Made by a program: the position numbers and the translations under genes. Below are positions 47,951-64,000 of a stretch of DNA of 64,000 bases, in pieces. This stretch comes from an uncultured delta proteobacterium. Its GTDB lineage: Bacteria > Myxococcota_A > Polyangia > Polyangiales > Polyangiaceae. Each line of letters starts with the position of its first letter. The first letter of the stretch is position 1. The stretch lies in assembly GCA_963841435.1 (NCBI GenBank), contig CAWJCS010000005.1:64001-128000 (forward strand). The letters run 5' to 3'. Below the pieces are notes generated by a model. The model was not told where the DNA came from. It saw nothing but the letters and a program-made list of their open reading frames with translations, and searched no databases.

Positions 47951-48538
47951 ATGTCGATGCCCGCGCCGCGCTCGCTTGGGAACAAGGCGGCGGAGCGCAT
48001 CAGCGAGGCCGGTCCGCGCACCAGGCCGCTCGACATCGAAGATCTGTTTCGACTCCACTCACCCGCCATCGCGTCCGTCGGCCTCGCCATGCTCCAGAGT
48101 GCCGAGGAGGCGGACGATCTGGTCCAGGACGTCTTCGTGCGTGCCTGGCTCGCCATCGATCGACTGGAAGATCGCGAACAGGCGAGACCCTGGCTGATGA
48201 CGATCGCCATCCGGCTCGCGCGGACGCGGCTCAGGCGGCGCAAGCTCACGCGACTGCTTTTTCGCAGCGACGAACCCGACTTCGAGCACATTGCGGCACC
48301 GGGCTCCCTTCCCGAGCATCGAGACCTCGTCAAACGCCTCTACCTGATCCTCGATACGATCCCCGTCGACCTTCGCATCGCCTGGGTGCTGCGCCACGTT
48401 CAGGAAGAGACGGTCCAGAGCGTCGCCGCGCTGTGTGGGTGGTCGCTGTCCACCGCGAAGCGTCGCCTTCAAGCCGCGGAGACGCGCGTGTCCGTCAAGC
48501 TGAGCTTGGCGACCCAGGAACGGAGGCCACTCCCGTGA
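47951..48538 (+). CDS. ECF sigma factor (close paralog of 61010-61612)
   Basis: EADDLVQDVFVRAW, WLMTIA, LCGWSLSTAKRRL. Confidence 0.92.
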   Translation: MSMPAPRSLGNKAAERISEAGPRTRPLDIEDLFRLHSPAIASVGLAMLQSAEEADDLVQDVFVRAWLAIDRLEDREQARPWLMTIAIRLARTRLRRRKLTRLLFRSDEPDFEHIAAPGSLPEHRDLVKRLYLILDTIPVDLRIAWVLRHVQEETVQSVAALCGWSLSTAKRRLQAAETRVSVKLSLATQERRPLP

Positions 48539-49705
48539 CCGAGCTCCCTGTCGAGAAGCACGTCCAGGCAGCGCAACGCGAAATCCGCGTACGGGCCTGG
48601 GACGATGCGCGCGTGAGCTCGGCGTGGCAAGAGCTCGCGGGACGGCGCGCGGACGCGGTCCGGACCCGGCAGCGTGCGACCCAGCTCGGCGCCTCGCTCG
48701 CGCTCGCGGCGGCCATCGCGTTCGCGTTCTTCGGATGGCGCGCGATCCGCCCCCACGCCGCACCCCCCGGCACCGAAACGGCCTCGAACGCGCCCGGCGA
48801 ACGCCGCATCGAGCTCGGTGATGCGACCGACGTGGCATTCGACCCCGGCGCCAACGTCGACGTGCGAGAGCGCACCGGCACGCGAATCGTCGTGGCGGTG
48901 GGCTCCGGGGCGGCGCGTTTTCGCGTGCGGCACGATCCCCGTCGCGTGTTCCGCGTCGAAGCGAGCGGCGTCGAGATTGAAGATTCTCGGCACGACGTTC
49001 GAGGTCGAAAACCTCGGGTCGTCCGTCCGTGTCGCGGTGAGGGAGGGCTCGGTGTCCGTGAGCTTCCGCGAGTCCGAGGGCAGCGTGCGGACCACGAAGG
49101 TGCTCGAAGCCGGCGAGCGTGGCGTCTACCCAGCCAAGGTCGTCCCTGCTCCCGCCGCCGCGGTCGAGCAACCGGCTTCAGTCGAAAGCCCGGAGCCGGC
49201 CCGAACGGCCAACGCAACGCGTCCCGGCGTCGAGGCCGCACCGACGGCGGACTGGCGTGAGCTCAAGCGCGCGGGAAAGCACGCACGAGCCTACGAGCTC
49301 CTGCAGCCCCGTGGTTTCCGCGACGTGCGCGACGAACCGGGAGATTTGTTGCTCGCGTCCGACGTCGCGCGTCTTTCGCATCACCCGGCAGAGGCAGCCA
49401 TGCTGCTGCGCAAGCTCGTGGCGGGGCACTCGCGGGATCCGCGCGCGCCGTCGGCCGCCTTCACGCTCGGCTGGGTGCTCTTCAAGGACCTCGGCCGTCC
49501 GCGCGAAGCCGCCGCTGCTTTCTCGCGCGCCGAAGCACTCGCACCCAGCGGCAATCTGGCTGAGGACGCGCTCGCTCGCGCCATCGAGGCCTTTTACCGG
49601 GCCGGAGACAAGTCGCGCGCCCGGGCGGAGCTCGAGCGTTACGAGCGGACCCACCCGCACGGAAGACACCAGGCATCGCTCGAGCGGCTCGTGGGCACTC
49701 CCTGA
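48535..49705 (+). CDS. FecR-TPR anti-sigma (one +1 frameshift at ~48984)
   Basis: GTGA coupling, TM, FRVRHDP; removing one T restores EDLGTTFEV (paralog DDLGTVFDV) and a 389-aa product, the same length as the paralog. Confidence 0.87.
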
Positions 49706-49812
49706 GAGCACCGCCCCCAGGGGGGCGCTCTGGACGCGGACTTTTCGCGACAAATGCCGTAAACCTACCGAGGGTGCCGGAAGGCCGAGTCGAGGTGCCC
49801 ACCACGAAGATC

Positions 49813-50592
49813 ATGCGCGCGTGTTCCACCTCGAGCCGCACCGCCTGCCATCTGGCCATGTGCACACTTTCGATGGCGCTCGGCGCGTGCGGAGAGACGA
49901 CGATCTCCATCGAAGACCCCGAGCGAGGCCCGGACCTCGACCTCGGGCTACTCGCGTATCTCCGCTTGGACGAGGCCACGGCAGGAGACCAGGCGTTCGA
50001 TTCATCTGGTCACGGCCACGACGGCAGCCCATCTGCGGACCCCCCGGTCCCATCCTCCTCGGTTCCGCCGGTTGGCTTCACGGATCCGCGAAGCCTCAGC
50101 TTCGACGGTCTCGCGCAGCTCGTCGATCTCGGCGGCCCCGCGACCCTCGACGTTGCGGGCAATGTCACTCTCTCGGCGTGGATCCGGCCACGCGCGCTGA
50201 ACGGCTACCGAAATGTCATCGCGCACGGCTTCCGCTGGTCCCCCAATGGCGACCTTTCGCTACGCATCTACGCGGGGGACTACGAGTTTACGGCTTGGGA
50301 CAGCGTGGACCACATGGCGAGCGCGGCGGTTCCCGAAGGCGACGTCAACACGTGGCACCACATCGCCGGCGTCTACGACGGTGAGAGCTACCGGCTCTAC
50401 CGCGACGGCGAGCTTCTCGCCGAGCACGCGGACACCTTCACGCCGATGCAATTCGATGCGCCCTGGGCAATCGGCGGGCGCTCCGCGACCGACCCCTCCG
50501 AAGGCCGCTACTTCGACGGCTTCATCGACGACGTTCGAATCTACGCGCGCGCGTTGTCGGCGGACGAGGTCCGCGCGCTGTTCCGCCGCTGA
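49813..50592 (+). CDS. LamG/concanavalin-like lipoprotein
   Basis: Lipobox LGAC, AYLRLDE, TLSAWI, WHHIAGVYDG, FDGFIDDVRIYARALS. Confidence 0.88.
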   Translation: MRACSTSSRTACHLAMCTLSMALGACGETTISIEDPERGPDLDLGLLAYLRLDEATAGDQAFDSSGHGHDGSPSADPPVPSSSVPPVGFTDPRSLSFDGLAQLVDLGGPATLDVAGNVTLSAWIRPRALNGYRNVIAHGFRWSPNGDLSLRIYAGDYEFTAWDSVDHMASAAVPEGDVNTWHHIAGVYDGESYRLYRDGELLAEHADTFTPMQFDAPWAIGGRSATDPSEGRYFDGFIDDVRIYARALSADEVRALFRR

Positions 50593-50607
50593 ACGCCGAT
50601 GACGGGA

Positions 50608-50663
50608 GCGACGCGGCCGTCGCAAGCACGCCGGTCCGGTTCGGCGCCGACGGCTCCGTCGGC
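50608..50663. terminator. Two GC hairpins between convergent genes
   Basis: GCGACG-cggc-CGTCGC and GCCGACG-gctc-CGTCGGC; no U-tract. Confidence 0.3.
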
Positions 50664-52106
50664 CTACGCGAGCATCGCGCTGATCTGGCCGCCCGAAAGA
50701 CCGCTCCCACCGAAGCTCTCGTAGGGCCCGCCGTTGTCGGTGCAGCCGACGGCGGTGAGGAGCGTGTTGTGCAGCTTGTTGTTCCCGACGCTCCCCGCGT
50801 TGACGAATTGGCCCTGCTTCAGGTACCCGCCCGCGCTGCCCGCGATGATGATCGGCAAGTTGTTGAAGCTGTGCGAGGGGCCGACCGCCACGTGGCTCGT
50901 CCACAGCGCGAACGCGTTGTCGAGCAGGGGACCGTTCGGCGTCGAGTACTGCTCCCACTTGTCGAGCAAGTACTTGAACGATTCGATGCGCAGCCGGTCG
51001 ATCGCCGCGTGTTGATCGACGGCGCCCGGGATGGCCGCGCCGGACGTACCGTCGCTCTGGATGCGATGGCTGATCCAGTGGAAGCGTTCGAGCAGCTGCC
51101 CGTCGATCGTGTAGCGCGTCGCGTCGGTACCGTCACCGACCTGCAGCGTTGCGACGCGTGTTGCGTTGCAGGAAAACGCAAAGGCGACGAGCTCCATCTG
51201 CAATTTTGCCACGTCCTCGGCCGCGCCGTTCTGACGGAAAGCCTGACCCGTGTTCATCGCCTGGATGGCCTGGACGTCGAGGCCGTCGGCGGAGCATTCG
51301 AGCCCCATCTGCATCATGGTGTTTTCCACGTCGCGAATGGACTGGAAGTGCTGATCGAGCCTATCGCGATCGGCTTGGCTGAGCTCGGGTCGATTGCGCA
51401 GCGAGTTCAGCTCTTCGCGGATCAAGTCGTTGACGCTGTTGCGACGGAGCGCCAGCCGATCGGCCGTGCCGGTGCCACTGCTACCGCCGCTGCCACCCGT
51501 CGTTCCCGATCCAACGAGCCCCACGAGGCGCTGGTAGACGTTGTAGGGATTTCCTTCGGCAGCGCGAACTTGCCCAGGGGCGCTGAAGGAAAGCTTTTCG
51601 TTGATGAAGCCACCCTTCAGCCCCGAATAAAGCGTCAGGGGATCCACGCCCGCGGGGTTGAGCTGCTCTGCGATCACCGTATCGACGGAAACGCTGGACG
51701 CCGTCAACTTGTTGTCCGTCCCATTCGGCTTGGACGCCGTGAGACACTGCACGAGCCCTTGGGCGTGCCCGCAGCCGCCGAGCCCGTACGGGTAGTTCAC
51801 GCCACGGACGATGAGCAGCCTCGCGGCGTGATCGGCGAGGATCCCCGTGCAGCGATCCGCGGCAAATGCCTGCATCGACTCGGTGGTGAGGGGCCCATCG
51901 GCGGTCGGCCAGAACTTTTCCGGATCGCCCCCCGACTTTTGCACGACGCCGCAAGACGTGCAGATGAAGAACGCGAAGCGAGGCGTCTCCGCTTGGGCGA
52001 AGGCCGAGCGTTCCGGCATCCCCTCGAGAAACGGGAGGCCCACGCCGAGCGTTCCCGCGGCCCGCAGGAACGCGCGCCGGTTGACGTGCGGGCGCTTGGG
52101 GCTCAC
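50664..52106 (-). CDS. DUF1552 family Tat-exported protein, copy 2
   Basis: NRRAFLR, LPFLE, DQHFQSIRDVE, AFSCNATRVA, HWISH, LLDN. Confidence 0.9.
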   Translation of the reverse strand: MSPKRPHVNRRAFLRAAGTLGVGLPFLEGMPERSAFAQAETPRFAFFICTSCGVVQKSGGDPEKFWPTADGPLTTESMQAFAADRCTGILADHAARLLIVRGVNYPYGLGGCGHAQGLVQCLTASKPNGTDNKLTASSVSVDTVIAEQLNPAGVDPLTLYSGLKGGFINEKLSFSAPGQVRAAEGNPYNVYQRLVGLVGSGTTGGSGGSSGTGTADRLALRRNSVNDLIREELNSLRNRPELSQADRDRLDQHFQSIRDVENTMMQMGLECSADGLDVQAIQAMNTGQAFRQNGAAEDVAKLQMELVAFAFSCNATRVATLQVGDGTDATRYTIDGQLLERFHWISHRIQSDGTSGAAIPGAVDQHAAIDRLRIESFKYLLDKWEQYSTPNGPLLDNAFALWTSHVAVGPSHSFNNLPIIIAGSAGGYLKQGQFVNAGSVGNNKLHNTLLTAVGCTDNGGPYESFGGSGLSGGQISAMLA

Positions 52107-53869
52107 TTGGCACCTCCCGTCCGGGTGAGAAAGCTCGGCTCTCCGATGACCGCGAGCACGATGTCCTTGATTGAAGCGTGGTCGTTCATGCTCATTCCTT
52201 CGATGCCGTCAACGAGAGCGCGATCACCGCCTGCGATGTCACGCGCCAGCGTGTATTCGGCCAGATGCATGGCGTAACAGCCGTGAACGCTCGGAGCTTC
52301 CGCGAGCAGAGCGGTCAGTCCGGGGGCCCCATCGAACGCGTGCAAGCCGTCCGACAATTCGAGCTCGCTCGAGGTGTCAACCGGCTTGCCGTTGTCGGTC
52401 GTGCGGATCTGGCCGATCGCGTCGAAGTTCTCGAAGGCGAAGCCCACCGGGTTGATGATCGCCCCATGGCAACCCTCGCCGCAGGTTCCCGGGCCCGTGA
52501 ACGCGTTGACGCGCTCGCGATTGGTCTGCCCTGGCGTGATGGTGGGTAAGGGTGGGATCGTGCCGGGCGGCGGCTGGAGCTCGGCGCACATCAAGCGGTT
52601 GATGATGTCAACGCCGCGGTGAATCGGATCCGGATCGTTGAGCGTCGCGTTCAACGAGAGGAAGCCGAGGCGCGTGAGGTAGCCGGGCCGCTCGGGACCG
52701 AGCTGGGTCTCGGTGAGAGCGGACCCGCTTGCCGTGACACCATACAAGGGTGCCGTCGCGGCGTTGACGAACGCGAGCGGCGAAGTCAGGAGCTCCCGCA
52801 CGCCCTGGCCAGCGGCGAAGATGCGATCGAAGAACATCTGATCGGCTAGTTGGAAGTCCGCATTGAGCGCCTGGGTGTAGTTGGGGAAGGCGGTGCGGTT
52901 CTTCTCGATCTGGGCGTAGCGATCGAGGCCCAAAAGCTCGGCGTGATAGCGGCCCAAGGTCGCCTGCCCGGCTGGCTCGGCGAGCATCGCCGTGGCTCGC
53001 GCGAGCACGCCGGCGGTCGTGTCGAGCTCCCCGGCGGCGGCCGCGTCGAGGAGCGCGTCGTCCGGAATGGTGTCGCGCAAAAGGAAGGAGAGCTTCGACG
53101 CCATCTCGTAGCCACCGAGCGGCGCGCCGTCGGTACCGAGCTCCATGCGGTAGAGGAAGTTCGGTGATTGCAGCATGCCCTCGACAATCATGTGCACCCC
53201 GTCCGCGAAGGCGTTGCCGCTCGCGACGAGCGTCACACCGGAATCGAAGACGGTCTGGTACCGCTGCTCTTCGGCGGCCGTCAGCGGGCGGCGGAAGGCC
53301 CTACGTCCGAACGTGCGAATGAACGTCGCCGAATCGGAGACGCCACCCGTGACCCGTGCGAGCGCCTGCGCATCGCCGGCAATCTGGTCAGCCAGCGTCT
53401 CGGCGGCACGCTGATAGTCGAGGCGCAGATCGGAGCTCACGAACAGCGCACGCTCGTTGTTCGAGAACGTGCCGTTCGGAGGATCCGGCGCGAAGCCTTG
53501 GGACAGCCCGGGAGTCGCGGAAAGGCCGAGCAGGTCGCGAACGCTCGCCTCCCATTGCGAAGCCGTCAGGCGAACGAAGCGAAAATAGTCGGGCGTGCCG
53601 GCGAGATCGATCCCCGAGCTCGTCGTACCCCCGGTCCCACCGAGCCCCGTGCCAGCGGAGCCCGCCGCAGCACCCGAGCTGCCCCCCGTGGCACCGGTTC
53701 CACCCGCCACCTGCGTCGTCCCGGCGCTGCCGCCCGTTCCCACGCCGCTCGAGGCGCCGCTGCCGGGCCCGCCCGCCTGTCCCCCGTCGATCGTCGCCGT
53801 GCAACCGAGGGCAAGCGCCAAAGGCAACAGCAGCAATCCGACGCGACGACCCGAGGTTGGTTTCGACAT
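52103..53869 (-). CDS. DUF1592-family lipoprotein, copy 2 (CX3CH)
   Basis: Lipobox ALGC, FGRRAFRRPL, QSPNFLYR, EMASKLSF, DPIHRG, CGEGCH, FENFDAIG. Confidence 0.9.
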   Translation of the reverse strand: MSKPTSGRRVGLLLLPLALALGCTATIDGGQAGGPGSGASSGVGTGGSAGTTQVAGGTGATGGSSGAAAGSAGTGLGGTGGTTSSGIDLAGTPDYFRFVRLTASQWEASVRDLLGLSATPGLSQGFAPDPPNGTFSNNERALFVSSDLRLDYQRAAETLADQIAGDAQALARVTGGVSDSATFIRTFGRRAFRRPLTAAEEQRYQTVFDSGVTLVASGNAFADGVHMIVEGMLQSPNFLYRMELGTDGAPLGGYEMASKLSFLLRDTIPDDALLDAAAAGELDTTAGVLARATAMLAEPAGQATLGRYHAELLGLDRYAQIEKNRTAFPNYTQALNADFQLADQMFFDRIFAAGQGVRELLTSPLAFVNAATAPLYGVTASGSALTETQLGPERPGYLTRLGFLSLNATLNDPDPIHRGVDIINRLMCAELQPPPGTIPPLPTITPGQTNRERVNAFTGPGTCGEGCHGAIINPVGFAFENFDAIGQIRTTDNGKPVDTSSELELSDGLHAFDGAPGLTALLAEAPSVHGCYAMHLAEYTLARDIAGGDRALVDGIEGMSMNDHASIKDIVLAVIGEPSFLTRTGGAK

Positions 53870-54173
53870 AGTCACCTGATTGGCTCCCGGCATCGATGTC
53901 CGCTCGAGCGGAACGTTTGGTTCTCGAGAGAGGAGGAGTCCGATGCTCCAACTATAAAGGGAGGCTTCGTCGCCCAAGCGCGCTCACAAATAAACCTTCG
54001 GTATCATTGAAAAAATGAGTACGGATTCGCTTCTCGTTGAATCCCGAACTGAGTCGTCCGTGGCCGTCCGATCACCGACCTTCGACTACGTCGGACGACA
54101 TCCACCCACCCGCTTCGGATCGTTCGGGCGAGCGTTTCGGCGGCCGAGCGGACCGTCGAGGCGCTCCCGAACG

Positions 54174-54737
54174 TCACTGGCTCGCGCCGTCGTTCATGCA
54201 CTGGGCGAGCGCGGGGTCGCGGCTCGCGAGATTCTTGAAGCGCGTTCGTGCTCTCGACAGGCGGCGCCGCACCGTGATGACGGAGCAGCCGGCCGCGGCT
54301 GCCATGGTGCCGAGCGTCGCGGGGCTGAACCAGTACGTCGCGAGGAGGGCGCGATCGGGAGGCGGCAACCGATTCATGACGCGAATGGCGCGCGACGCGA
54401 GGTCTCGCTCGTCGGTCTCGATCTGGAACGACGGCCGTAGCTGCTCCGGCACGGTCTCGAGCGAGGCGTGCCGACGATGGCGTCGGTGCCGCATCGTGCT
54501 CCTCAGGGTGTTCATCGTCACTTGGGCCACCCAGGCGTCGAGGCAAGCCGGATCGCGCAGCGTTTCGACGCCACGAATGACCGACATCAGCACTTCCTGC
54601 ACCAGATCCTCGTGCTCGTCGTCCTGACCGAGGACGGCCTTGACGTGGCGCGCGATCTTCTTGGCGTAGCGAGCATGCAGGTGCTCGGCCGTCAGCACGG
54701 CTTCGATCTGGGGGGGGTTGACGAGGGCGGCGGACAT
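54174..54737 (-). CDS. Orphan ECF sigma factor
   Basis: HEDLVQEVLM, WVAQVTMN, GCSVITVRRRLSRAR; no adjacent anti-sigma. Confidence 0.85.
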   Translation of the reverse strand: MSAALVNPPQIEAVLTAEHLHARYAKKIARHVKAVLGQDDEHEDLVQEVLMSVIRGVETLRDPACLDAWVAQVTMNTLRSTMRHRRHRRHASLETVPEQLRPSFQIETDERDLASRAIRVMNRLPPPDRALLATYWFSPATLGTMAAAAGCSVITVRRRLSRARTRFKNLASRDPALAQCMNDGASQ

Positions 54738-55088
54738 CTCGTGACTAGCTCCCTGCAGCGCTGTTCCCGCAGCACGCAATTAGCAGGCCGTTCATCCGCG
54801 ATCCTTCGCGGTCTTGCGAGCGCTCGACATCAGATTTCACGACGTGCATGACTCCGCGTGTGGAAACGTCGCTCTTAACCTATTCCCGGCTAGCGACGCA
54901 CTGATCTGCAATGTCTCGCGAACGCCTCGACGCGTTCCGAGCGGCACGTCGATCGAAATCCGCATTTCGTGTTGACTCGATCCGCTCACGGACCGCCGCG
55001 ACACGACGAGACGCTTCTCCCTGAGGGCGACGCGTTTGGCGTCGGTGCCGGCGGAACGATGCGGACGCGACTGAAGCTGCACCAATGA

Positions 55089-55261: not shown

Positions 55262-56645
55262 TCAGGCCTGGATGCCGGGCAACGCCGCCGTGACGCGTCC
55301 GCCGTCGAGACCGAGCTCGGTCTGCGTCGAGCCCATGATCTGCGCGGCCGTGAGGAGCGCTCGGCTCAGGTTCTCACCCGGAAAGTTGAAGTGCTCGTCG
55401 CCGCGTAGCCGGCCAGCTGCCTTCCCCGCGAGGAGCACCGGCCACTCCTCCTTCGTGTGCGTCTTACCCCAGGCGGTGTCGGAGGTGACGTAAACGAGCG
55501 TGTCGTCGAGCAGGGTCGAGCTACCGTGCGGAGTGTTCTTGAGGTTCACCAAGAATTCGTTCAGGCACTTCATCGCGTAGAGAACGCCGGTGTCGACGCG
55601 AGGCTGATTGGATTGATCTCCGGCGTCACCGTGACAGATGGTGTCGTGGAAATCGTCGTTCATGTTCGATGCGAGGTGCCGGTAGTACACGTGCGCCGCG
55701 GGTAGCGAGAACATGAACGTGGCGACGCGCGTCTTCTCGCAGGCGAGGGCGAGCGTCGTGAGCTCGGCCATGGCGGAGTTCACGGCAGGGGGAGCCTCGC
55801 TCTTCGAATCGGGGCCGACGCCGGGAGCCATCGCGCTGCCGCACGCCGCTGGCAGCGTGCCGCCCGTCGTGGGCATCGTGTCGAGGCGCAGCTCGATGGC
55901 TCGGATCGCCTCGAGGTGCTGCTCCACGCGCGCCTTGTCGGCGGCTCCGAGGCGCTGCTCGAGACTCGCGCCGTCCTCGAGAATGGCATCGAGCACGCTC
56001 TTTCGGACTCTCGCAAGCTTGGCGGCGGGATCGTCCGTACCCGTCGTGGGAGGGGGCGTGCTGCCACCCGTGAACAAGCGATTGAACACGGCCTTTGGAT
56101 CGAACTCGGGGTTCAGACGCGCGTTCGGCCCACGGTGCGACACGGTGTGCAGCGAGTCCGGATTGCCGTTCGGCGTGGCAGGCGTCACGCCCACCTCGAG
56201 CGAGCGGTAGGGCGCCCCCGTGGAAATGAGAATCCGCGACGACCTGATCGATGGACGCAGCTCGGACGGCGTTGCCGTTGAGCGGCGCGCCGGTCGTGGC
56301 CGCCGCCGACCCCGTCGGATGCTCGTTCCCGGAAACCACGAGCTTGCCCTGGAGTCCCGAGAGCACGGTGAGGTACGACTTGACCTCCACGAGCGGCTGG
56401 AGCTGTGGGCTGAGCTGCCACGCCGATCCGGAGCCCGTGCTGGTCGGCTTCCAGAGACCGGGGAGCGAGCCGTTCCCGAAGAACCAGGTCACGAACAGCG
56501 GCGTGAGGGCCGTGTTCGTCTGCGCGAGCGCCGTGCCGTTCTCGTTCAACATGGCATCCAAGAGCGGGAGCGGAATGGTGACGGCGGCACCCGTCGCAAG
56601 CATGCCCCGAAGAACGGTGCGTCGGTCCAAAGCTTTGATCGTCAT
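55262..56645 (-). CDS. DUF1552 family Tat-exported protein, copy 3 (one +1 frameshift at ~56231)
   Basis: DRRTVLR, SIDQVVAD; removing one base restores LISTGAPYRSLEVGV; ALACEKTRVA, HDTICH, TLLDDT; 460 aa corrected. Confidence 0.88.
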
Positions 56646-56662: not shown

Positions 56663-58546
56663 CTAGGGTTGCGGTGCGACGGAGGAGAACGCGTCGCTCG
56701 TCACTATGTCGAGCACGAGGTCGCGCAGCTGGAAGCCAGACGCCTGGAACGATGCGGCGAGGTCGTTCACGACGCTGCCGTCGACGTCGCGTTCCTCGTA
56801 GCCGAGCGCGTAGGAGTAGTACTTCCGGACCATGCACTGAGCGACCTCGAGGCTCGAGGCGACCGCGAAGCCCAGCTCACGAGCGTCGGCCACCGGCTGC
56901 CCCTCGAAGTCGCCGCTCGGGTCGATGGGCAAGCCGTGGTCGGTCGTGCGATAGCGGCCAATCGCATCGAAGGACTCGAGCGGCAGCCCCAGAGGGTCCA
57001 TCATCGAATGACAGCCCGCGCACGTGGGGTTTGAGCGGTGCATCTCGAGCTGCTGGCGCTTCGTCATGGGCTGGTCAACGGGCGGGTCCTCGAGCACGGG
57101 GACGTTGCCGGGGGGCGGCTCGACGGGCGTGCACAGGAGCGCCTCACGGATGAACTTGCCGCGCAACGTGGGGGACCCAGCCTTCTGGTTCGCAAACGCG
57201 GAGGCGAAGCCTGCCTTGCTGAGCAGGCCCAGGCGCGGGCCGTCCGCCGGCAACGAGCGCACGGCGAAGGTGCTCGCGGTGAGACCCGTCGTGTCGATGC
57301 CGTAAAGCTGCGCAAGGTCGAGGTTGACGACGACCTTCGGGGTCGAAAAAACGTCCATCGCGCTCGTGCGGTCGTCGAACGCGAGGACCTCCCACACGTC
57401 TCGCATGTCGCGGACCATCGCGGCCTGCAGCGCAGGGCCGTATTCCGCGAAGAGCGACGCGTCCTTGGCCTGCGTCGCGATGCGATCGAGCCGCAGGTAC
57501 TCCTCGGCGAAGGCGCCGACGGACTCGCGCCCCGCCGGCGCCTCGAGCAGCCGCGCGGCGGCGTTTCGAATGCCATCGGGCGTCGCAAGAGCACCGCTCG
57601 CGGCCTCGTCGAGCAGCGTTTCGTCGGCCAGGCTGTTCCACACGAGGAACGCCAGCCTCGACGCCGTCTCGTAGCCCGTGAAGCGCAGCGCCCCGCCCGT
57701 GCTCGGGGCTCCGAGCTCCGCGCGATAGAGGAAGTTCGGCGACGTGAAAAGCTCCACCGTCGCCCAGCGTACCCCCTCGATGGCACTCCCGAGCTCGGAC
57801 GTGGCGTTCTCGGCGACCGCCATGAGTCGGTCGACCTCGGCCGTTTCGAGTGGGCGCCGCCACGCGCGACGCCCCATGGACTGGACGAATCCACGGACGC
57901 ACGCGTCGTTCGTGCCGGTGCCCGGCGTGCAGCCGATGAACGCGGCTTGCCTGGCCGCGTCCGCCAACACGGTGTCCACGGCGCTCTCGATGGCGGTGTG
58001 GTACTGCTCGACGCCCCGCTCGGACGTGACGACGGTCGAGGCGCCGATGACGGCAAAATTCCCGTTGTAGCTGTCGGTGTCGAGCTCGCTCGTGTCGACA
58101 TCGACACCGAACACGTCGCGCACGGCGTTGCGGAACTGATTTCGCGTCAGCCGGCGCAGCAATCCCGGCGCGGCCTGGAAGGGCGGAGGGTTTTGATAGA
58201 CGGGCGGCGCGCCAGCCGTCGCGCCCGTGCCGGCAGAGCCCGTCGCTCCACTTCCACCACCGCTCGCTGCGCCGGACCCCGCCGAGCCCGCGGGCCCGGT
58301 ACCGCCTTGACCGGGTGCGCCCCCGGCTGCGCCCGCTCCGCTCGCGGACGCTCCCGCGGCGCTGCCGGCACCGCTGCCGGCAGGAGTGGTCCCATCCCCG
58401 CCCGACGACGCACCATCGACGGTGCCCGTGCACCCGATCCCCAAGAGGCACGCCGCCATGCCGGCCAGGCCGCGTGAGGGCCGCCCGCGGGAATCGAGCG
58501 TGATCCGACCCGCAACGCCGGGTCGGTCGGAGCTGTCCGTCACCAT
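56663..58546 (-). CDS. DUF1592-family heme-c lipoprotein, copy 3
   Basis: Lipobox GIGC, LRRLTRNQF, SPNFLYR, ETASRLAFLVW, SPTLRG, CAGCH, ESFDAIG. Confidence 0.9.
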   Translation of the reverse strand: MVTDSSDRPGVAGRITLDSRGRPSRGLAGMAACLLGIGCTGTVDGASSGGDGTTPAGSGAGSAAGASASGAGAAGGAPGQGGTGPAGSAGSGAASGGGSGATGSAGTGATAGAPPVYQNPPPFQAAPGLLRRLTRNQFRNAVRDVFGVDVDTSELDTDSYNGNFAVIGASTVVTSERGVEQYHTAIESAVDTVLADAARQAAFIGCTPGTGTNDACVRGFVQSMGRRAWRRPLETAEVDRLMAVAENATSELGSAIEGVRWATVELFTSPNFLYRAELGAPSTGGALRFTGYETASRLAFLVWNSLADETLLDEAASGALATPDGIRNAAARLLEAPAGRESVGAFAEEYLRLDRIATQAKDASLFAEYGPALQAAMVRDMRDVWEVLAFDDRTSAMDVFSTPKVVVNLDLAQLYGIDTTGLTASTFAVRSLPADGPRLGLLSKAGFASAFANQKAGSPTLRGKFIREALLCTPVEPPPGNVPVLEDPPVDQPMTKRQQLEMHRSNPTCAGCHSMMDPLGLPLESFDAIGRYRTTDHGLPIDPSGDFEGQPVADARELGFAVASSLEVAQCMVRKYYSYALGYEERDVDGSVVNDLAASFQASGFQLRDLVLDIVTSDAFSSVAPQP

Positions 58547-58551
58547 GCACG

Positions 58552-58653: not shown

Positions 58654-59661
58654 TCAGAATCGCGCCGCTACGCCTAGGGCGCTCGAAAGCATCATCCCGC
58701 GCGCGCCCGAAATCGCCCGCCCGTTGTCGCGAATCTGGATCGAGTGGAGGGCACCGCCCACGGCGGCGCGGAACGTGGCGGAAAATGGGCCTGACAGGGC
58801 GACGAAGGCCGTCGTCGTCCCCGCGACGCTCACGACGCCTGCATCGCCGCCCCCATAGCTTGCGCCAGCGCCCGAGACCGCGGTGTAGCGCAGCCAGTCC
58901 CCTCCGAGCCTCGCGCCAAACGATACCCCCGCGCGGCGCCAGCCCGGCGTGGCGTCGAGAGCAAGGCCCACGCCGGAGGCCAGCCCGTATCCCGATAGCT
59001 TCCCGCTCGCGAGCGCGGTGGAGCGGGTCTTTCTGCCTCCGAGCTCGAGCTCCGCGATCAGAAAGCGGCCAAGGTGAACGCGGCCACTTAGATCGGCACC
59101 AAAAAGCAGCTCCCCGCCCGTCCAGCCCGAGGCGATCGCATGGGCGCCGACCTCGACGCGCCACGAAGGAGGCGCCGGCTCGACGCGCGCGGGCTCTTCG
59201 AGCGGAGTCGGCTCCGGGGGCGGGGCAACGCTCGGAGCGCTTGGCTCGGACGCCTGCTCGAGGTCGACGCGACGAATGAGCTCCGCAATGGCGAGCGCGA
59301 GCTCGCGCGCCTTGGCATCACGATCCTTGCCCCCGGAAGCGCTGAGATCGATGCCGCGCACGGTGACGCGACCGCGCGCCCGGTCCGTGAGGCGAACCTC
59401 TTGACCCTCGGCGGCACACGCCACGGCAACGTCCAGCCTTTCGAGCGCCGTGCGCCCGTGCCAGGTGCCAAGCTCGATCTCGACCAGGCGTCGGACCTCT
59501 TCGGTGTCGACCTGGACGCACGGGTCGATGGTGATCGGCGGCGGCAACGCCGCCTCGGCTCCCGTGGCGAGGAGCAAGACCGAGAGCGCGATCACGACGC
59601 CCCGGCCCTCCGCCGGCCGGACACGGCGCAGGCGAGGACGTGACCACTTTGCGGACACCAA
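58654..59661 (-). CDS. Hypothetical exported protein with possible small beta-barrel; ECF module partner
   Basis: Signal peptide ending AEA, Cys pair, helical ARELALAIAEL segment, Pro linker, amphipathic strands, terminal Phe (GVAARF). Confidence 0.7.
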   Translation of the reverse strand: MVSAKWSRPRLRRVRPAEGRGVVIALSVLLLATGAEAALPPPITIDPCVQVDTEEVRRLVEIELGTWHGRTALERLDVAVACAAEGQEVRLTDRARGRVTVRGIDLSASGGKDRDAKARELALAIAELIRRVDLEQASEPSAPSVAPPPEPTPLEEPARVEPAPPSWRVEVGAHAIASGWTGGELLFGADLSGRVHLGRFLIAELELGGRKTRSTALASGKLSGYGLASGVGLALDATPGWRRAGVSFGARLGGDWLRYTAVSGAGASYGGGDAGVVSVAGTTTAFVALSGPFSATFRAAVGGALHSIQIRDNGRAISGARGMMLSSALGVAARF

Positions 59662-59669
59662 TCCCTGAT

Positions 59670-59703
59670 TTCATACTCGCGAGCTAGAAGAGTCGGTTCA
59701 AAA
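59670..59703 (-). promoter_or_regulatory. Candidate ECF promoter TTTTGAACCG-N15-GAGTATGAA
   Basis: Matches 58552-58585 in both boxes with an unrelated spacer of identical length. Confidence 0.65.
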
Positions 59704-59843
59704 TAACGACGGCGGGCGCCAGCGCCCGGAGCGTCTCGGAGGTCCGTGGCGCTTTCGACGGGCGTGGCAAAGCGCCGGCCCGGCCGCCGGGCTCGGGCGT
59801 CCGCTGACACGCCCTCGCTAGGTCTTTGCCTGGGAGCGGAAGG

Positions 59844-61013
59844 TCACGGACGCCCGACCAGGCGCTCGAGCATCGCAAGGTGCCTGCCTTGCGGGTAGCT
59901 TCTGCGGTAGCGCTCGACCTCGACGCTCGCGCGCGAAAGCTCGCCCGCGCGATACCAGGCCTCCACCGTGCGTGCCACGGCGTCCTCGGCAAGGTTTCCT
60001 CGTGGTGCGAGCGCCTCCGCCTTCGCGAAAGCGAGCGCAGACTCGCGCGGCCTCCCGAGCTCGTTCATGAGCACCCAGCCGAGCGTGAACGCGGCCGACG
60101 GAGCCCGGGGGTCACTCGCGTGGCCGACGAGCATCTTGCGCAGTAGCTTGGCTGCCTCGTCCGGATGACCCGACAAGCGCGCGACGTCGGACGCGAGAAG
60201 CAAGTCGCCCGGCTCGTCGCGAACGTCGCTGAACGCCGCGGGAACCAACAGCTCGAAGGCACGCCGATGCTTCCCGGCGCGCGCGAGCTCGCGCCAATCA
60301 GAGGAAGACGCCTGCTCGGCGGCGACCCGCGTCGCTTCCTTGCTCGACGCGACGCGCGACGCCTCCCCTGCCTTGGGGAGCGCTTGGTCGGAGACGACCG
60401 CGGAGGAGGCGACGGCCGCATAGGTCCCGCTCTCGCCACCGCGAAGCGTCGCGGTCTCGAGCGCCCCTCCCTCACCAGGAAATGAAACCGCGACGGAGCC
60501 TTCGGTCACGGCGACGCGCACGACGTCGCCCTGCTTTTCAACGTCGAAGACGGTACCGAGATCGTCGACCTCGACTTCGGCCGCTCGCACGCGAAAAAGG
60601 CGGTGTGGATCGTGTCGAACTCGAAAGTGCGCGCTGCCCGCAGCGACCCCGACGACGACGAGCGAGTCGGTCTGCTCGCGAACCTCGACGCTCGAGCCGC
60701 GGGTGAAGCGCATCTCCGTGCCGTCGCCGAGTGAGACGCGCTCCAAGCCGGCTGCGACCGCCCGGGGCTCGTTCGCCGTCGGCAGAGCAGCGGGCTTCAG
60801 CGCGCGGAAGGCAACGATCATCAGCCCGAACGCGGCGGCGAAGGCCAGCGCGGCTCGGCCGACCGTCATCCCGCGCCGCAGCGAGGGTCGAGCGCCGGGC
60901 CTCTTGCGCAAGAGCTCGAGCCACGCGTCTTCGACGCGACGGGCGTCCCATGCGCGCATTTGCAACTGGCGCTTGAGCGCCTCGATGTGCTCGTTCATGG
61001 TGAGCTCGCTCAT
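59844..61013 (-). CDS. FecR-TPR anti-sigma factor
   Basis: TM, LGDGT, FRVRHDP, DDLGTVFDV, VTEGSV; TPR tail DPRAPSAAFTLG...YPQGRH. Confidence 0.88.
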   Translation of the reverse strand: MSELTMNEHIEALKRQLQMRAWDARRVEDAWLELLRKRPGARPSLRRGMTVGRAALAFAAAFGLMIVAFRALKPAALPTANEPRAVAAGLERVSLGDGTEMRFTRGSSVEVREQTDSLVVVGVAAGSAHFRVRHDPHRLFRVRAAEVEVDDLGTVFDVEKQGDVVRVAVTEGSVAVSFPGEGGALETATLRGGESGTYAAVASSAVVSDQALPKAGEASRVASSKEATRVAAEQASSSDWRELARAGKHRRAFELLVPAAFSDVRDEPGDLLLASDVARLSGHPDEAAKLLRKMLVGHASDPRAPSAAFTLGWVLMNELGRPRESALAFAKAEALAPRGNLAEDAVARTVEAWYRAGELSRASVEVERYRRSYPQGRHLAMLERLVGRP

Positions 61014-61612
61014 GACTTATTCTCCACCTCGCGCGTGATGGCCGAGAGCCCGCGGGCAACGCGCCCGTCCGCCGCTTGGATGCGCCGTTTCGCGGTCGAG
61101 AGCGACCACCCGCAGAGCTTGGCCACGCTCTGCACCGTCTCCTCCTGAACGTGGCGAAGCACCCAGGCGATGCGCAGCTCGACGGGAATCTTGTCGAGAA
61201 TCCCGTAGAGCTTGTTCACCATCTCTCGATGCTCGGGGAGAACACTCGGCGCTGCGATCCGGTCGAACTCCGGCTCGTCCATCCGAAACAGGAGCCGCGT
61301 GAGTCTCCTGCGACGCAGGCGCGTACGCGCCAGCCGAATCGCAATCGTCATCAGCCACGGCCGTGCCCCCTCTCGATCTTCCAGTCGTTCGAGAGCGCGC
61401 CAGGCCCGGACGAAAACGTCTTGAACCAGATCGTCGGCTTCCTCGACGCTCTGAAGCATCGCCACTCCGAGGGATGCGATGGCCGGCGCGTGCCGGCGAA
61501 ACAGCTCCTCGATGCCGAGCGGATAGCCTGGCGCGGGGGGGGTCCTGGCGGGCTCCCCCGCGTCGACCAGGTGCGGGCGCCGCATGGCCACAGGCATGAC
61601 GAGCAGATACAT
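61010..61612 (-). CDS. ECF sigma factor
   Basis: EADDLVQDVFVRAW, WLMTIA, LCGWSLSTAKRRI; ATGA-coupled to the FecR gene. Confidence 0.92.
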   Translation of the reverse strand: MYLLVMPVAMRRPHLVDAGEPARTPPAPGYPLGIEELFRRHAPAIASLGVAMLQSVEEADDLVQDVFVRAWRALERLEDREGARPWLMTIAIRLARTRLRRRRLTRLLFRMDEPEFDRIAAPSVLPEHREMVNKLYGILDKIPVELRIAWVLRHVQEETVQSVAKLCGWSLSTAKRRIQAADGRVARGLSAITREVENKS

Positions 61613-61643
61613 ACAAAACGCTTCAGCCGGAAAAAGTGGCTCA
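61613..61643 (-). promoter_or_regulatory. Candidate autoregulatory ECF promoter TGAGCCA-N15-GCGT
   Basis: Directly upstream of the sigma ATG, same spacing as the other sites. Confidence 0.5.
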
Positions 61644-62113
61644 GAAAAGAAAAGGGCCAGGTTTCCGTCTCACGTTGGGCTTGATCGCAAGACCGCTCGA
61701 CGCCGCCACTCGGAGAGCACGCCGCAGCGAAACAGAAGCGACCAGCGATTCGACTTCAGACGTTCCCGACTTCGCGTTTGCGTCGCATGCGTAAGGGTGT
61801 CCACTCGGCGAAGCAACATCCGAGTCTCTGGCTTCGTGTTTGCGTCGAGTGACGAGCGCTGTTGCTCAACGCGCCAAACAGTTGACAACGCGCGCGTTCC
61901 CCGTCGCGCGAGCTTCGATCGTTCGAAGAAGATCGTTCAAGCGGCATGTAGCAGCATGTAAGCAAGCGCGGCTCGTACCCAGCGACGACGAATCTGTCGT
62001 GAGCGATTTCCACGTGCGAGCAATTGTTGAAGCTTGCTGCGAAAGCGCTTCAGCAACAGAAAAACAAACGAGCGCACGCCTCGTCGGCTTGCATCAGTAC
62101 TCGGTGTGATATC

Positions 62114-63901
62114 ATGATGAACATCAGCATGAGCACATACCTAGGAGTGAGGCGGTTGCTTCCGCCCCTCGTGGTGCTCGCGGCGACGGTCGGGTGCACT
62201 GCGACGATCTCGGGCAACGGCGCCGGAGACGGCGATGGCAACACCGGCAGCGGCGCGGGCCCGAGTGGATCGGGCGGATCCAGCGCCGGTTCGTCCGGCA
62301 CGGGCGGCAGCGTGGCGACCGGTGGGAGCGGGGGCACGGGCGGCGCCACTGGCGGCAGCACGGCCAGCGGAGGCACCGGCGGCGGCGTTCCGTCGGAGGT
62401 GCCGGAAGTCAGCATGGATGGCGCGCCCATCTACAGTCGGCTGCTGCGCCTGACCAACGATCAATACGGCCACAGCGTCGACGACCTCCTCAAGGTCGCA
62501 GCGCCTACGGGGCTCGCTGACGGCTTCTTGCATTCGGTGTCCGGCACCACGGACTTCGACAACAACGAGCGCGTCGTATTCGTGAACAGCACTGCGTGGA
62601 GTGATTTCCAACTCGCCGCCGAGAGCGCCGCTTCGCTGGTCACGGCAACGGACGCGGACCTGCAGCGCGTCGCCGCGACGACCGACGGCACGACGTTCAT
62701 CAAGACGTTCGGTCGCCGCGCCTTCCGCCGTGACCTAACCGACGCCGAGGTGGCGACCTACAAGGCGCTCTTCGACACGGGCCCGACGTACACCGGCACC
62801 CAGAGCGACTTCACCAAGGGCGCCGGGCTCGTGATCACGGCGATGCTTCAGTCGCCGAACTTCCTCTACCGCATGGAGATGGGCGACCCGGGCACGCCGC
62901 TCACTGGCTACGAGATGGCGGCCAAGCTCTCGCTCTGGATTCGCGACACGACGCCCACCGACCAGATGCTCGACACCGCCAAGAGCGGAGGCTTCGACAC
63001 GCCCGACGCGGCGGCGAGCCAAGCCGCCCAGATGCTCGACGAGCCGGCGGCCATGGCCACCATGCGGAAGTTCCACGGCGAACTCTACAAGATCGAGGTC
63101 CTGGACACGATCACGAAGACGGGCGTCCAGGGCTACAGCGACGCGCTCATCCCCGAGTTCAAGGAAGCCTCCTACCAGTACTTCGATCGCATCTTCTCGC
63201 AGAACCTCGGGATCGCCGACATGCTCACGTCGACCGTGGGCTTTGCCGGCCCACTGATGGCAGCGGTGTACGGCGTCACCTTGACGGGCAGCGGGATCCA
63301 GCAGGTCAACCTGCCGGATCGCGCAGGCTTCTACTCGCAGGCGCCGTTCCTCACGCTCTGGGCCATCAACAACGCGCCGGATTCGATTCACCGAGGCGTG
63401 CGCATCAACCTCGACACGCTGTGCCGCGATCCCGGCCTCCCCAACGCCGTGCTTCCGTCCGTCCCGGCGCTCGAGCCCGGTCAAACCAACCGCCAACGCT
63501 ACGACGCCCTCACCAAGGAGTGCGGCGCCTCCTGCCACGGACAGATCATCAACCCCGTCGGGTTCGCGTTCGAAAACTTCGACGGGCTCGGTCGCTACCG
63601 CGACACGGACAACGGGCAGCCCGTTGACTCGACCGGAACCTACACGTTCGTCGAGGGCACGCTCGACTACTCGGGCTCCACGGAGCTCATGCAGCTCATC
63701 GCGAGCGGCGTTCAGGCACACCAATGCTACGCAAAGAAAGTCGCAAGCTACGCCATGGAGCGTGACATCGTCGCAACCGAGCGGCCGCTCATCGAGTCGC
63801 TCGGACAAACGAGCCTAACTACGGGCGCGTCGCTCAAGGAGCTGATGGTGGCTCTCGTCAAGAACGATGCGTTCCGTACGCACGTCGGAGGTGCCCCGTG
63901 A
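62114..63901 (+). CDS. DUF1592-family lipoprotein, copy 4 (CX3CH)
   Basis: Lipobox TVGC, LLRLTNDQY, FGRRAFRR, QSPNFLYR, SIHRG, CGASCH, FENFDGLG; start 62114-62129. Confidence 0.9.
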   Translation: MMNISMSTYLGVRRLLPPLVVLAATVGCTATISGNGAGDGDGNTGSGAGPSGSGGSSAGSSGTGGSVATGGSGGTGGATGGSTASGGTGGGVPSEVPEVSMDGAPIYSRLLRLTNDQYGHSVDDLLKVAAPTGLADGFLHSVSGTTDFDNNERVVFVNSTAWSDFQLAAESAASLVTATDADLQRVAATTDGTTFIKTFGRRAFRRDLTDAEVATYKALFDTGPTYTGTQSDFTKGAGLVITAMLQSPNFLYRMEMGDPGTPLTGYEMAAKLSLWIRDTTPTDQMLDTAKSGGFDTPDAAASQAAQMLDEPAAMATMRKFHGELYKIEVLDTITKTGVQGYSDALIPEFKEASYQYFDRIFSQNLGIADMLTSTVGFAGPLMAAVYGVTLTGSGIQQVNLPDRAGFYSQAPFLTLWAINNAPDSIHRGVRINLDTLCRDPGLPNAVLPSVPALEPGQTNRQRYDALTKECGASCHGQIINPVGFAFENFDGLGRYRDTDNGQPVDSTGTYTFVEGTLDYSGSTELMQLIASGVQAHQCYAKKVASYAMERDIVATERPLIESLGQTSLTTGASLKELMVALVKNDAFRTHVGGAP

Positions 63902-64000
63902 CCGACCGCATCAAAGCCAGGCGCCACGTCGTCAACCGCCGCGCGTTCCTTTACGGCGCGGGCGGGGTCGCGCTGGGTCTTCCGTTCCTCGAAGGCCTGC
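63898..64000 (+). CDS. DUF1552 family protein, copy 4 (5' fragment)
   Basis: GTGA overlap; NRRAFLYGAGGVALGLPFLEG matches the N-terminus of copy 2. Confidence 0.85.
   Translation, partial: MTDRIKARRHVVNRRAFLYGAGGVALGLPFLEGL

Follow-up and report, generated by a model that had tools for sequence, protein, structure and literature searches.

A conserved operon of a sigma factor, a FecR-type anti-sigma factor, a predicted outer-membrane barrel and a lipoprotein beside DUF1592/DUF1552 gene pairs in a member of the Polyangiaceae

Gene organization of the locus

In the genome of an uncultured delta proteobacterium of the Polyangiaceae, genes for extracytoplasmic function (ECF) sigma factors and their anti-sigma factors are interleaved with paired genes of the DUF1592 and DUF1552 families (DUF, domain of unknown function). 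The region occupies 47.9-64 kb of a 64,000-nucleotide stretch of contig CAWJCS010000005.1 (positions 64,001 to 128,000), which we call the window and whose own coordinates are used below. We report here that the signalling unit of this region is a conserved four-gene operon, which codes for an ECF sigma factor, an anti-sigma factor with FecR and TPR domains, a protein that we call X and a lipoprotein with a Laminin_G_3 domain (henceforth LamG). The source genome (G000) amounts to 7.78 Mb in 6 contigs. As the G+C content of the window is 70%, genes were called by third-position G+C before domains were assigned with Pfam (Table 1). An earlier note on this DNA had listed three DUF1592/DUF1552 pairs, two ECF sigma/FecR-TPR pairs and one lone sigma factor in the region, and a further set of the kind at 14874-23198; Pfam and the translations recover all of these. 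The observation is thus confirmed, and its interpretation is partly supported.

On the minus strand sig3, fecR3, X, DUF1592_b and DUF1552_b follow one another in this order, and the start and stop codons of the sigma and FecR reading frames overlap. The lone sigma gene, sig2, has no adjoining anti-sigma gene and stands immediately 5' of DUF1592_a and DUF1552_a (pair a) on the same strand, and this pair is in turn convergent with sig1, fecR1 and the LamG gene. The match of sig1 to TIGR02937 (sigma70-ECF) reaches 68.2 bits against a cut-off of 42.9, and fecR3 shows weak TPR and YfiO matches in Pfam besides PF04773. The DUF1552_c gene, which the window end interrupts, is complete in the genome (L004:766-2355; PF07586 E 1.6e-46). 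At the second site DUF1552_d and DUF1592_d, the latter with CGGCH and the lipobox ALGC, are divergent from module d, which consists of X_d, sigma_d, FecR-TPR_d and a lipoprotein gene; X_d was picked up by the iterated X profile described below.

Table 1. Coordinates of the genes and sequence blocks considered in this study, in positions of the window.
Feature	Position	Strand	Description
sig1	47951-48538	+	ECF sigma factor; recent paralogue of sig3; Sigma70_r2 E 1e-16
fecR1	48535-49705	+	FecR-type anti-sigma factor with C-terminal TPR; frame broken near 48985
Laminin_G_3 lipoprotein	49813-50592	+	PF13385 E 4.8e-29; lipobox MALGAC by eye
DUF1552_a	50664-52106	-	PF07586 E 1e-54; Tat motif RRAFL
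DUF1592_a	52103-53893	-	PSD3-PSD5-PSD4-PSCyt3-PSD2; lipobox LALGC; CGEGCH (CX3CH)
16-base conserved block	53987-54002	-	5' of DUF1592_a, between sig2 and pair a
sig2	54174-54779	-	ECF sigma factor; Sigma70_r2; TIGR02937 62.3 bits against 42.9
DUF1552_b	55262-56645	-	PF07586 in two pieces; frame broken near 56210
DUF1592_b	56663-58546	-	Lipoprotein; CAGCH; Pfam
X	58654-59595	-	313 residues; no Pfam or NCBIfam family
fecR3	59844-61013	-	Intact FecR-type anti-sigma factor with C-terminal TPR; PF04773 E 1.9e-12, 47.9 bits
sig3	61010-61612	-	ECF sigma factor; Sigma70_r2 E 3.2e-17; TIGR02937 66.7 bits against 42.9
Promoter-like bipartite block	61615-61647	-	Just 5' of sig3; TTcTTGAcCCGT, 12 bases, GAGCGTTT
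DUF1592_c	62024-63901	+	Lipoprotein; CGASCH (CX3CH); divergent from sig3; Pfam
DUF1552_c (start)	63898-64000	+	Tat motif RRAFL; gene cut by window end
DUF1552_d and DUF1592_d (fourth pair)	14874-18130	-	Pfam; DUF1592_d start approximate
Module d (old paralogue)	18339-23198	+	X_d, sigma_d, FecR-TPR_d, lipoprotein
sigma_d	~19490-20041	+	Translation
FecR-TPR_d	20040-21594	+	FecR and TPR Pfam matches
Module d lipoprotein	~21590-23198	+	Weak Calx-beta match, E 3.8e-4, under its cut-off
Esterase-like lipoprotein	46349-47635	-	Gly/Ser-rich tether and PHB-depolymerase-family esterase-like domain; divergent from sig1
GH16	29747-31258		Pfam; outside the region
CE2/GDSL	42377-43876		Pfam; outside the region

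A conserved four-gene sensor operon

With fecR3 alone as the query only three genome loci were recovered; related loci come from metagenome-assembled genomes of Polyangiaceae. A scan of metagenomes with the alignment of X yielded 60 loci, whose neighbouring genes were called with profiles built from our own sequences. A FecR gene lies no more than 300 bp upstream of X in 36 of the 40 metagenome loci that have at least 1.3 kb of upstream sequence, and a sigma gene precedes X in 25 of the 27 that have at least 2.4 kb. Downstream, a gene of about 250 codons begins -1 to +11 bases after X. Its product has a Laminin_G_3 domain in 30/35 loci submitted (28/29 among the metagenome loci), a count from which 9 of the 38 called open reading frames (ORFs) were left out as near-duplicates or as too short. 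The sigma-FecR/TPR-X-LamG operon is therefore conserved and, with these 60 loci, widespread in soil and rhizosphere metagenomes. The LamG gene at 49813-50592 represents the fourth gene of the ancestral module.

LamG is the commonest fourth gene of the module, and others occur: a PHB-depolymerase-like esterase lipoprotein beside a DUF pair at another locus of the same genome (L002), a GH27-NPCBM protein after X (L001), the Calx-like lipoprotein of module d, and RCC1 or GH5-like proteins (L008, L009). The L002 gene (L002:8119-9219, minus strand) codes for a tethered lipoprotein with a PHB-depolymerase-family esterase-like domain that falls under the NCBIfam cut-off; by eye, it has Thr at the position of the nucleophile Ser, and the window copy at 46349-47635 keeps GESSG. 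This window copy, divergent from sig1, has no Pfam family and matches NCBIfam NF050058 with E 8.5e-18, also under the cut-off; its lipobox, LLASC, was likewise read by eye, and a relative with 30% identity adjoins a DUF pair in L013. Around the paralogous loci that combine the sensor with a pair we observed a GH27 alpha-galactosidase-NPCBM, a CE2/GDSL esterase, a GH5 protein and an esterase (L001:14920-16647, L003:1466-4125, L002:3212-4525).

The earlier note had taken the sigma/FecR-TPR genes for trans-envelope sensors, and they do look so, as they come with a dedicated outer-membrane partner, X, and with the LamG lipoprotein. It had also suspected a polysaccharide signal from neighbouring LamG, beta-helix, GH16 and esterase genes. 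The GH16 and CE2/GDSL genes exist but lie 4-17 kb off, and the beta-helix has no Pfam match within the window. Because the operon itself carries X and the LamG lipoprotein, a glycan signal becomes more plausible than it was on the strength of such distant neighbours.

Protein X and its predicted contact with the anti-sigma factor

The relatives of X that we collected number 77, none of them named and most of them metagenomic. X has no match in Pfam or NCBIfam, including curated families of outer-membrane proteins such as PF13505, and its nearest named cluster in the Atlas is OMP_b-brl with a score of only 0.88. The AlphaFold2 (AF2) model of X, with a predicted local distance difference test (pLDDT) value of 89.4, begins with a signal peptide, followed by an alpha/beta N-domain (residues 20-116); a Pro-rich linker then leads to an 8-strand barrel. 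In Foldseek the barrel (145-313) finds the transmembrane domain of OmpA at E 8.5e-8, and OmpA, NspA, OmpX and OmpW at E 8.5e-8 to 1e-4; in VIA it aligns with OmpW at Z 17.2 (root-mean-square deviation 3.2 over 166 residues) and with the OprF barrel at Z 17.1 (1.9 over 132 residues). X is accordingly modelled as a periplasmic N-domain joined to an OmpA/OmpW-like 8-strand outer-membrane barrel.

An iterated X profile retrieved 28 X-family genes from the source genome, 25 of them full-length. Of the latter, 23 are no more than 3 kb from a sigma gene, where 3000 random draws average 1.58 and never exceed 6, and 9 are equally close to a Pfam FecR gene, for which chance gives a mean of 0.38. The tree of X has a second division, comprising 13 genes of this genome (e.g. 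C5:1486006, C5:1297733, C5:1728453): 12 of the 13 lie within 0.6-3.1 kb of a sigma gene, a Pfam FecR gene is found at up to 3 kb in only 1/13, and a DUF pair is nearby in 0/13.

For the prediction of a complex, residues 80-389 of FecR3 (47-row alignment) were combined with residues 18-125 of X (50-row alignment). The interaction score ipSAE was 0.87, and the best of 3 controls scored 0.00; the mark applied to this score is reached by 116/157 solved complexes and by 2/215 mismatched pairs, and holds roughly with our own alignments. At least 93% of the contacts agree between runs, and the pLDDT of the partner is at least 80. The predicted contact joins the TPR part of FecR3 (247-384) to the helix 93-116 of X and to its segments 36-45 and 80-91, and most columns that are invariant in the two alignments fall within the interface: E41, R80, A94, R97, E98, L101 and E105 in X, and D276, R279, D301, R303, P305, A307, F309, G339 and L341 in FecR. 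The model supports the view that the TPR domain of the anti-sigma factor clasps the N-domain of X, a contact that at this stage is a prediction of the modelling only.

The DUF1592/DUF1552 pairs

Few gene families of unknown function have expanded as much in Planctomycetota, Verrucomicrobiota and Myxococcota as the DUF1592/DUF1552 pairs. The source genome has 38 DUF1592-type genes, every one of which (38/38) has a DUF1552 gene within 3 kb; there are about 40-42 DUF1552 genes, four of which are without a DUF1592 partner. PSD3, PSD5, PSD4, PSCyt3 and PSD2 all score above their cut-offs in the DUF1592 copies a, b, c and d, and PF07586 was found in DUF1552 a, b (as two pieces), c (in L004) and d. 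We found no paper in the literature that gives the DUF1592/DUF1552 pair a function, as the earlier note had supposed, and PMC5615132 likewise states that nothing is known about these pairs.

That note had described each pair as a lipid-anchored haem-c protein with a Tat-exported, His-bearing partner. For DUF1592, the lipoboxes are there, as is one haem-type motif in each protein, but a canonical CXXCH is present in only one of the three copies of the region. At the PSCyt3 position of the 38 proteins we counted 32 CXXCH and 5 CX3CH, with 1 having neither; CXXCH occurs in DUF1592_b and d, and CX3CH in DUF1592_a and c. The CGEGCH of DUF1592_a is retained in its orthologues in L016 and L017, which are 76-78% identical, and CX3CH is therefore a stable variant rather than a product of decay. 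The CX3CH genes are those at 52103-53893 and 62024-63901 together with three further copies in G000. An extra N-terminal CXXCH was found in 0/38 of the genome's DUF1592 proteins. A crude rule detects a lipobox in at least 28/38, and it missed copies b and c, which are positive by eye.

The description of DUF1552 holds good: the proteins have twin-arginine (Tat) signals and invariant His residues on what resembles an alkaline-phosphatase-superfamily fold. In an alignment of 31 sequences H114, S140, D142, D227, H253, R258, E261, C313, R317, H343 and H347 are invariant. The HXXSHH motif of PF07586 here takes the form HxxSH[R/L/D/K], in which H343, S346 and H347 are kept and the last His is replaced. 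With the AF2 model of DUF1552_a (pLDDT 78.8) as the Foldseek query, the top 40 or so matches are all sulfatases, alkaline phosphatases, LtaS and phosphonate monoester hydrolase (probability up to 1.00; E 1.2e-5 to 4e-3), so that the model points to an alkaline-phosphatase/sulfatase-like fold, a resemblance that is weak in TM-score (template modelling score). Searches of solved structures by sequence, with the DUF1552 profile and with DUF1592_b, gave nothing below E 0.04. The pairs may carry out redox or hydrolytic chemistry.

Duplication, frameshifts and a shuffled gene island

Six related contigs (L005, L006, L013, L014, L016 and L017) hold sigma, FecR, X, LamG, sig2 and DUF pairs in shuffled order, with orthologues 50-82% identical. 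In L005 a pair and a sig2 fragment precede sigma, FecR, X and LamG; in L006 sigma, FecR, X and LamG are followed by one pair and then a second; L013 has a pair, sigma, FecR and X; and L014 has X, an unknown gene, sigma, FecR, sig2 and a convergent pair. L016 and L017, whose orthologues of window genes are 67-82% identical, carry X, LamG, pair b, sigma, FecR, sig2 and pair a on a single strand. LamG orthologues thus stand 3' of X in L005, L006, L016 and L017, and in the last two the sig2 orthologue comes after FecR and before that of DUF1592_a. The ancestral order, as displayed by the related contigs, is sigma-FecR-X-LamG with DUF pairs alongside.

Against this background the two modules of the region are recent duplicates, each short of one part of the ancestral operon: sig1 and sig3 are about 80% alike by eye, copy 1 reads sig1-fecR1(frameshifted)-LamG with X lost, and copy 2 reads sig3-fecR3-X with LamG lost. 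Taken together, the two copies retain one intact version of every operon part. In L016 and L017 the DUF1592_b orthologue is separated from X by LamG, so that the direct succession X-DUF1592_b of the window represents a deletion. The earlier note had the combination recurring independently; the fourth set at 14874-23198 is real, but sig1/fecR1 and sig3/fecR3 are recent duplicates of each other and so do not count separately.

Two genes of the region are broken. In fecR1 a +1 frameshift near 48985, caused by an extra T outside any homopolymer, places the N-terminal part and the TPR part in different frames, both of which align with fecR3; the source's own gene call (P0288) comprises the C-terminal 242 aa only. 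In DUF1552_b the frame breaks near 56210, within a G5 run, and Pfam recognizes the gene in two pieces, one for profile positions 2-94 and the other, in a different frame, for 112-288. The orthologues of both genes in related contigs are unbroken. Genome-wide, 3 of about 42 DUF1552 genes are split, one of them also with an in-frame TGA; sites of this kind besides the window are G000:C2:454530-455454 and G000:C2:482269-483137. Of the sampled words, 11% occur in a single soil-metagenome study, whose runs are the only public ones that contain part of the stretch; its contigs cover 49711-53448 in pieces and reach neither 48985 nor 56210. The frameshifts are either indel errors of the assembly or the marks of an expanded DUF1552 family that is shedding copies.

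Linkage between the sensor and the pairs

In the source genome 7 of the 38 DUF1592 genes have a FecR gene within 5 kb, where random placement gives a mean of 0.93 and 0/5000 placements reached 7; seen from the other side, the distance to a DUF1592 gene is no more than 5 kb for 6/19 FecR genes. The flanks of the metagenome loci contain 11 DUF1592 genes in 342.5 kb, spread over 9/60 loci, against 0.9-1.7 expected from the DUF1592 densities of three genomes of the same genus. On the tree of X, a pair lies within 8 kb for 6/12 of the genome's X genes in the FecR-type division as opposed to 0/13 in the other division; within the quick tree that we computed the DUF label is scattered, and well-supported branches force at least 9 changes. 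A sigma gene stands immediately at the head of a DUF pair in L042 and in L057, as sig2 does in the window. No DUF1592 gene is present in G013, which belongs to a different family of the order. We conclude that the link between sensor and pairs is real but partial, in that it belongs to particular lineages of the module and does not hold for the pairs in general.

The second sigma factor and candidate promoters

A second sigma gene beside the sensor recurs, sig2 being present in the window, L005, L014, L016 and L017. In a distant metagenome clade the second sigma gene is divergent; it is this gene that stands at the head of the DUF pairs of L042 and L057. In L019, L030, L032 and L033 this divergent sigma gene heads one for an LVIVD/Big_5 protein, which is followed by a gene for a cytochrome of 1155-1308 residues with PKD, beta-propeller, CCP_MauG (di-haem peroxidase), RoxA-like and cytochrome c domains; in L032 the LVIVD/Big_5 and RoxA-like cytochrome genes are followed in turn by one for DUF1592. 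The segments concerned are L019:4-5520, L030:1516-7233, L032:1470-5393 and L033:4-1596 (minus strand). We considered the divergent sigma factor as an orthologue of sig2, an assignment that could not be made, as it is 23-27% identical to sig2 and sig3 alike. The arrangement fits a sigma cascade that might act on exported haem enzymes.

A block, TTcTTGAcCCGT, 12 bases, GAGCGTTT, is conserved just 5' of the sigma orthologues. A promoter matrix trained on 6 sites, for which the best of 20 shuffled windows scored 16.9, detects one clear extra site, with a score of 21.4, 5' of X in L014, where X is detached from the sigma and FecR genes. A different block of 16 bases, 5' of DUF1592_a, is common to L016 and L017; with up to 2 mismatches allowed it occurs nowhere else in the genome and therefore defines no regulon.

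Farther from the region, the window contains some genes that we record in their own right. On the minus strand, 6786-10415 is one long ORF with TPR, CarboxypepD_reg, PEGA, Plug and TonB-dependent barrel domains, which overlaps the Ser/Thr kinase ORF 9746-11383 (minus strand). Ser/Thr kinase genes at 23731-25551 (minus strand), at 9746-11383 and at L002:1459-2448 adjoin sigma/FecR-TPR modules. A multi-haem protein of the cytochrome c7/c3 type is encoded at 38527-40413 (minus strand).

A proposed mechanism and its alternatives

As a whole, we read the region as a rearranged copy of a conserved gene island of the Polyangiaceae type, in which the sensor operon is accompanied by DUF pairs as its probable output, a reading that we consider about evenly poised between right and wrong. 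From the gene arrangement and the models we infer the ligand, the flow of the signal and the control of the pairs as follows. X would stand where the TonB-dependent transducer stands in FecI/FecR/FecA systems, with its conserved periplasmic helix clasped by the TPR domain of the anti-sigma factor. The concanavalin-like LamG lipoprotein would be the likely ligand-binding part, probably for a glycan, such that a signal at the outer membrane might pass through X to the anti-sigma factor and free the sigma factor. In the window this operon was duplicated, each copy losing one part. Among the putative outputs, DUF1592 would act as a tethered lipoprotein with one haem-type motif, and DUF1552, exported by Tat, would combine a phosphatase/sulfatase-like fold with a cluster of histidines. 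Pair a is headed by sig2, a second sigma factor without an anti-sigma factor, and the pairs could be reached either by read-through from the operon or via sig2. More specifically, and with clear doubt, we posit for myxobacteria of the Polyangiaceae type an undescribed form of TonB-independent signalling, in which X and a lipoprotein of a glycan-binding type (Laminin_G_3 or other) form the sensor, and the freed sigma factor, sometimes via a second sigma factor, induces DUF1592/DUF1552 pairs, along with further haem enzymes, for an attack on a polymer outside the cell.

Several observations weigh against this reading. The great majority of the genome's pairs (31/38) have no FecR gene within 5 kb. 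In two congeners a FecR gene is that close to 2/27 and 1/23 pairs (by eye), for which about 0.6 and about 0.4 are expected by estimation from counts and genome sizes, an excess that is not significant. Linkage beyond what the high copy number of both families would give is found in the source genome (7/38 against 0.93) and in the metagenome flanks, and falls short of significance in these two relatives. Sigma genes as such are barely enriched near pairs (12/38 within 10 kb against 7.2 expected, P=0.046), and the excess of X near DUF1592 is modest: 5/25 X genes lie within 6 kb, where random draws average 1.42 and go up to 6. The enrichment figures also overstate independence, because loci and paralogues are related to one another. 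As for control, our first attempt at a promoter, by alignment and bipartite search of the regions upstream of sig1, sig3 and three orthologues, gave nothing convincing, and neither the window nor L005-L017 shows a match to the promoter-like block 5' of a DUF1592 gene. On the side of the proteins, one anti-sigma factor and one DUF1552 of the region may be pseudogenes, the Foldseek matches of DUF1552_a have low TM-scores (0.27-0.44), a fold match for the N-domain of X was not found (the rows returned by VIA were taken up by the barrel, and the Atlas had no usable named match), and the score of the FecR3-X complex is a confidence of the model, computed from our own alignments. The trans-envelope sensing part of the earlier proposal finds support; that the pairs are switched on by the sigma factors is a conjecture, given linkage in only 7/38 and 3/50 cases and the absence of the promoter block 5' of DUF1592. 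The data suggest, and do not prove, that the sensor switches DUF1592/DUF1552 pairs on.

The co-location might be incidental, with high-copy accessory genes piling up and duplicating in plastic islands, the sigma factors controlling their own operon or distant genes, and the pairs being regulated in some other way. In its favour, about 40 DUF1552, 38 DUF1592, 84 sigma and 25-28 X genes lie in 7.8 Mb, and this explanation would also accommodate the 7/38 linked pairs of the source genome and the 3/50 of the two congeners, the recent duplication of the two window modules, the failure to find a common promoter motif 5' of the pairs and the fluid gene order. Yet the proximity of FecR and DUF1592 is about 7x chance in the source genome, and the DUF1592 density of the metagenome flanks is 7-12x the genome-wide level. 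Moreover, one gene set has been kept through rearrangement in six related contigs, the linkage recurs across several clades of X, and the window, L042 and L057 each have a pair headed by a sigma gene on its own strand. We consider an incidental association rather unlikely on these grounds.

Two further explanations assign other roles to the parts. The module might monitor the state of the envelope instead of a nutrient glycan, with a lipoprotein held by the small OmpA-like barrel reporting defects of the outer membrane or of exopolysaccharide to the anti-sigma factor, and the pairs serving as enzymes of repair or remodelling; RcsF with OmpA/OmpC in enterobacteria offers a parallel. An OmpA/OmpW-like 8-strand barrel such as that predicted for X is unable to import a ligand itself, the lipoprotein gene is translationally coupled to X, and the fourth gene varies (LamG, RCC1, GH5-like, Calx-like and the esterase-like form whose nucleophile, by eye, is altered), a variety that fits binding proteins rather than enzymes. 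On the other hand, Laminin_G_3 domains are typical carbohydrate-binding modules, carbohydrate-active enzymes (GH27-NPCBM, CE2, GH5 and an esterase) flank paralogous modules in L001-L003, and 25-28 paralogous modules in one genome suit many ligands better than a single envelope state, which leaves such a monitor distinctly unlikely. Alternatively, the DUF1592/DUF1552 pair might belong to the sensor and make or process the signal for X and the anti-sigma factor. This would agree with the order sig3-fecR3-X-DUF1592_b-DUF1552_b on one strand of the window, where DUF1592_b occupies the slot after X, and with the build of DUF1592, whose lipobox and Gly/Ser tether resemble those of other fourth-gene lipoproteins. 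We nevertheless hold it to be very unlikely, since X and the DUF1592_b orthologue are parted by LamG in the close relatives L016 and L017, the slot after X is filled by LamG and not by a pair in 30/35 modules, and 31/38 pairs are without FecR nearby.

How the sensor is built, together with its likely partner in the outer membrane, is a more solid result than the function of the pairs. If the TonB-independent signalling posited above is real, it would provide the first regulatory handle on the DUF1592/DUF1552 pair; if the sigma/anti-sigma switch controls some of the pairs, the inducing conditions could be found by genetics in culturable relatives, for instance Sorangium or Chondromyces. A FecR pathway that ends in a small barrel and a lipoprotein would also widen the range of known designs for signalling across the envelope.

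Comparison with known systems

The pairs conform to known DUF1592-type/DUF1552 pairs in the succession PSD3-PSD5-PSD4-PSCyt3-PSD2 beside PF07586, in being exported and in carrying a haem-type motif; here, adjacency is obligate (38/38). They differ in that DUF1592, here a lipoprotein, has a Gly/Ser tether and only one motif, whereas relatives in other phyla are reported to have a further N-terminal CXXCH (0/38 here). Other distinctions are the conserved CX3CH in 5/38, the DUF1552 motif HxxSH[R/L/D/K] and the fact that a subset of the pairs adjoins sigma-FecR-X operons.

In the FecI/FecR/FecA systems, such as E. coli Fec and Pseudomonas Fox/Pup/Fpv, a TonB-dependent transducer holds the outer-membrane place. 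The operon described here resembles them in having an ECF sigma factor followed by a single-pass anti-sigma factor with a FecR domain, and an outer-membrane protein of the same operon whose periplasmic N-domain is predicted to touch the C-terminal part of the anti-sigma factor. It differs in being without a TonB-dependent transducer, plug or STN domain (Pfam finds no Plug, TonB_dep_Rec or STN match in 47.9-64 kb): the partner is instead predicted to be an 8-strand OmpA-like barrel, the anti-sigma factor ends in a TPR domain, and the LamG lipoprotein is a constant fourth gene, in a context without iron uptake.

The closest published likeness that we found is group ECF267 of the ECF classification 2.0 (Casas-Pastor et al. 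2021, PMC7826278), which includes sigma factors of Sorangium and Chondromyces. In the accessible text of that work, the group is described with an anti-sigma factor that is FecR-like and fused to TPR at position +1 and no FecA-like partner (PMC7826278, Supplementary Text S2), with protein kinases nearby and with promoter motifs that are not conserved. In agreement with this description, fecR3, fecR1 and FecR-TPR_d have FecR and TPR matches, the host belongs to the Polyangiaceae, a FecA-like partner is missing, and kinases are near (the Pkinase genes 9746-11383 and 23731-25551 of the window); we liken sig1 and sig3 to ECF267 on the strength of the group description. We found no paper on a sigma-FecR-barrel-LamG operon, and what is in print, as far as we found and within the accessible text, is confined to a 'FecR-like anti-sigma with TPR' without an outer-membrane partner. 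The group description in that text names neither such a partner nor LamG, whereas here X occupies position +2 and LamG position +3. If the TonB-independent signalling posited above is real, X would supply the missing outer-membrane partner of ECF267-type systems.

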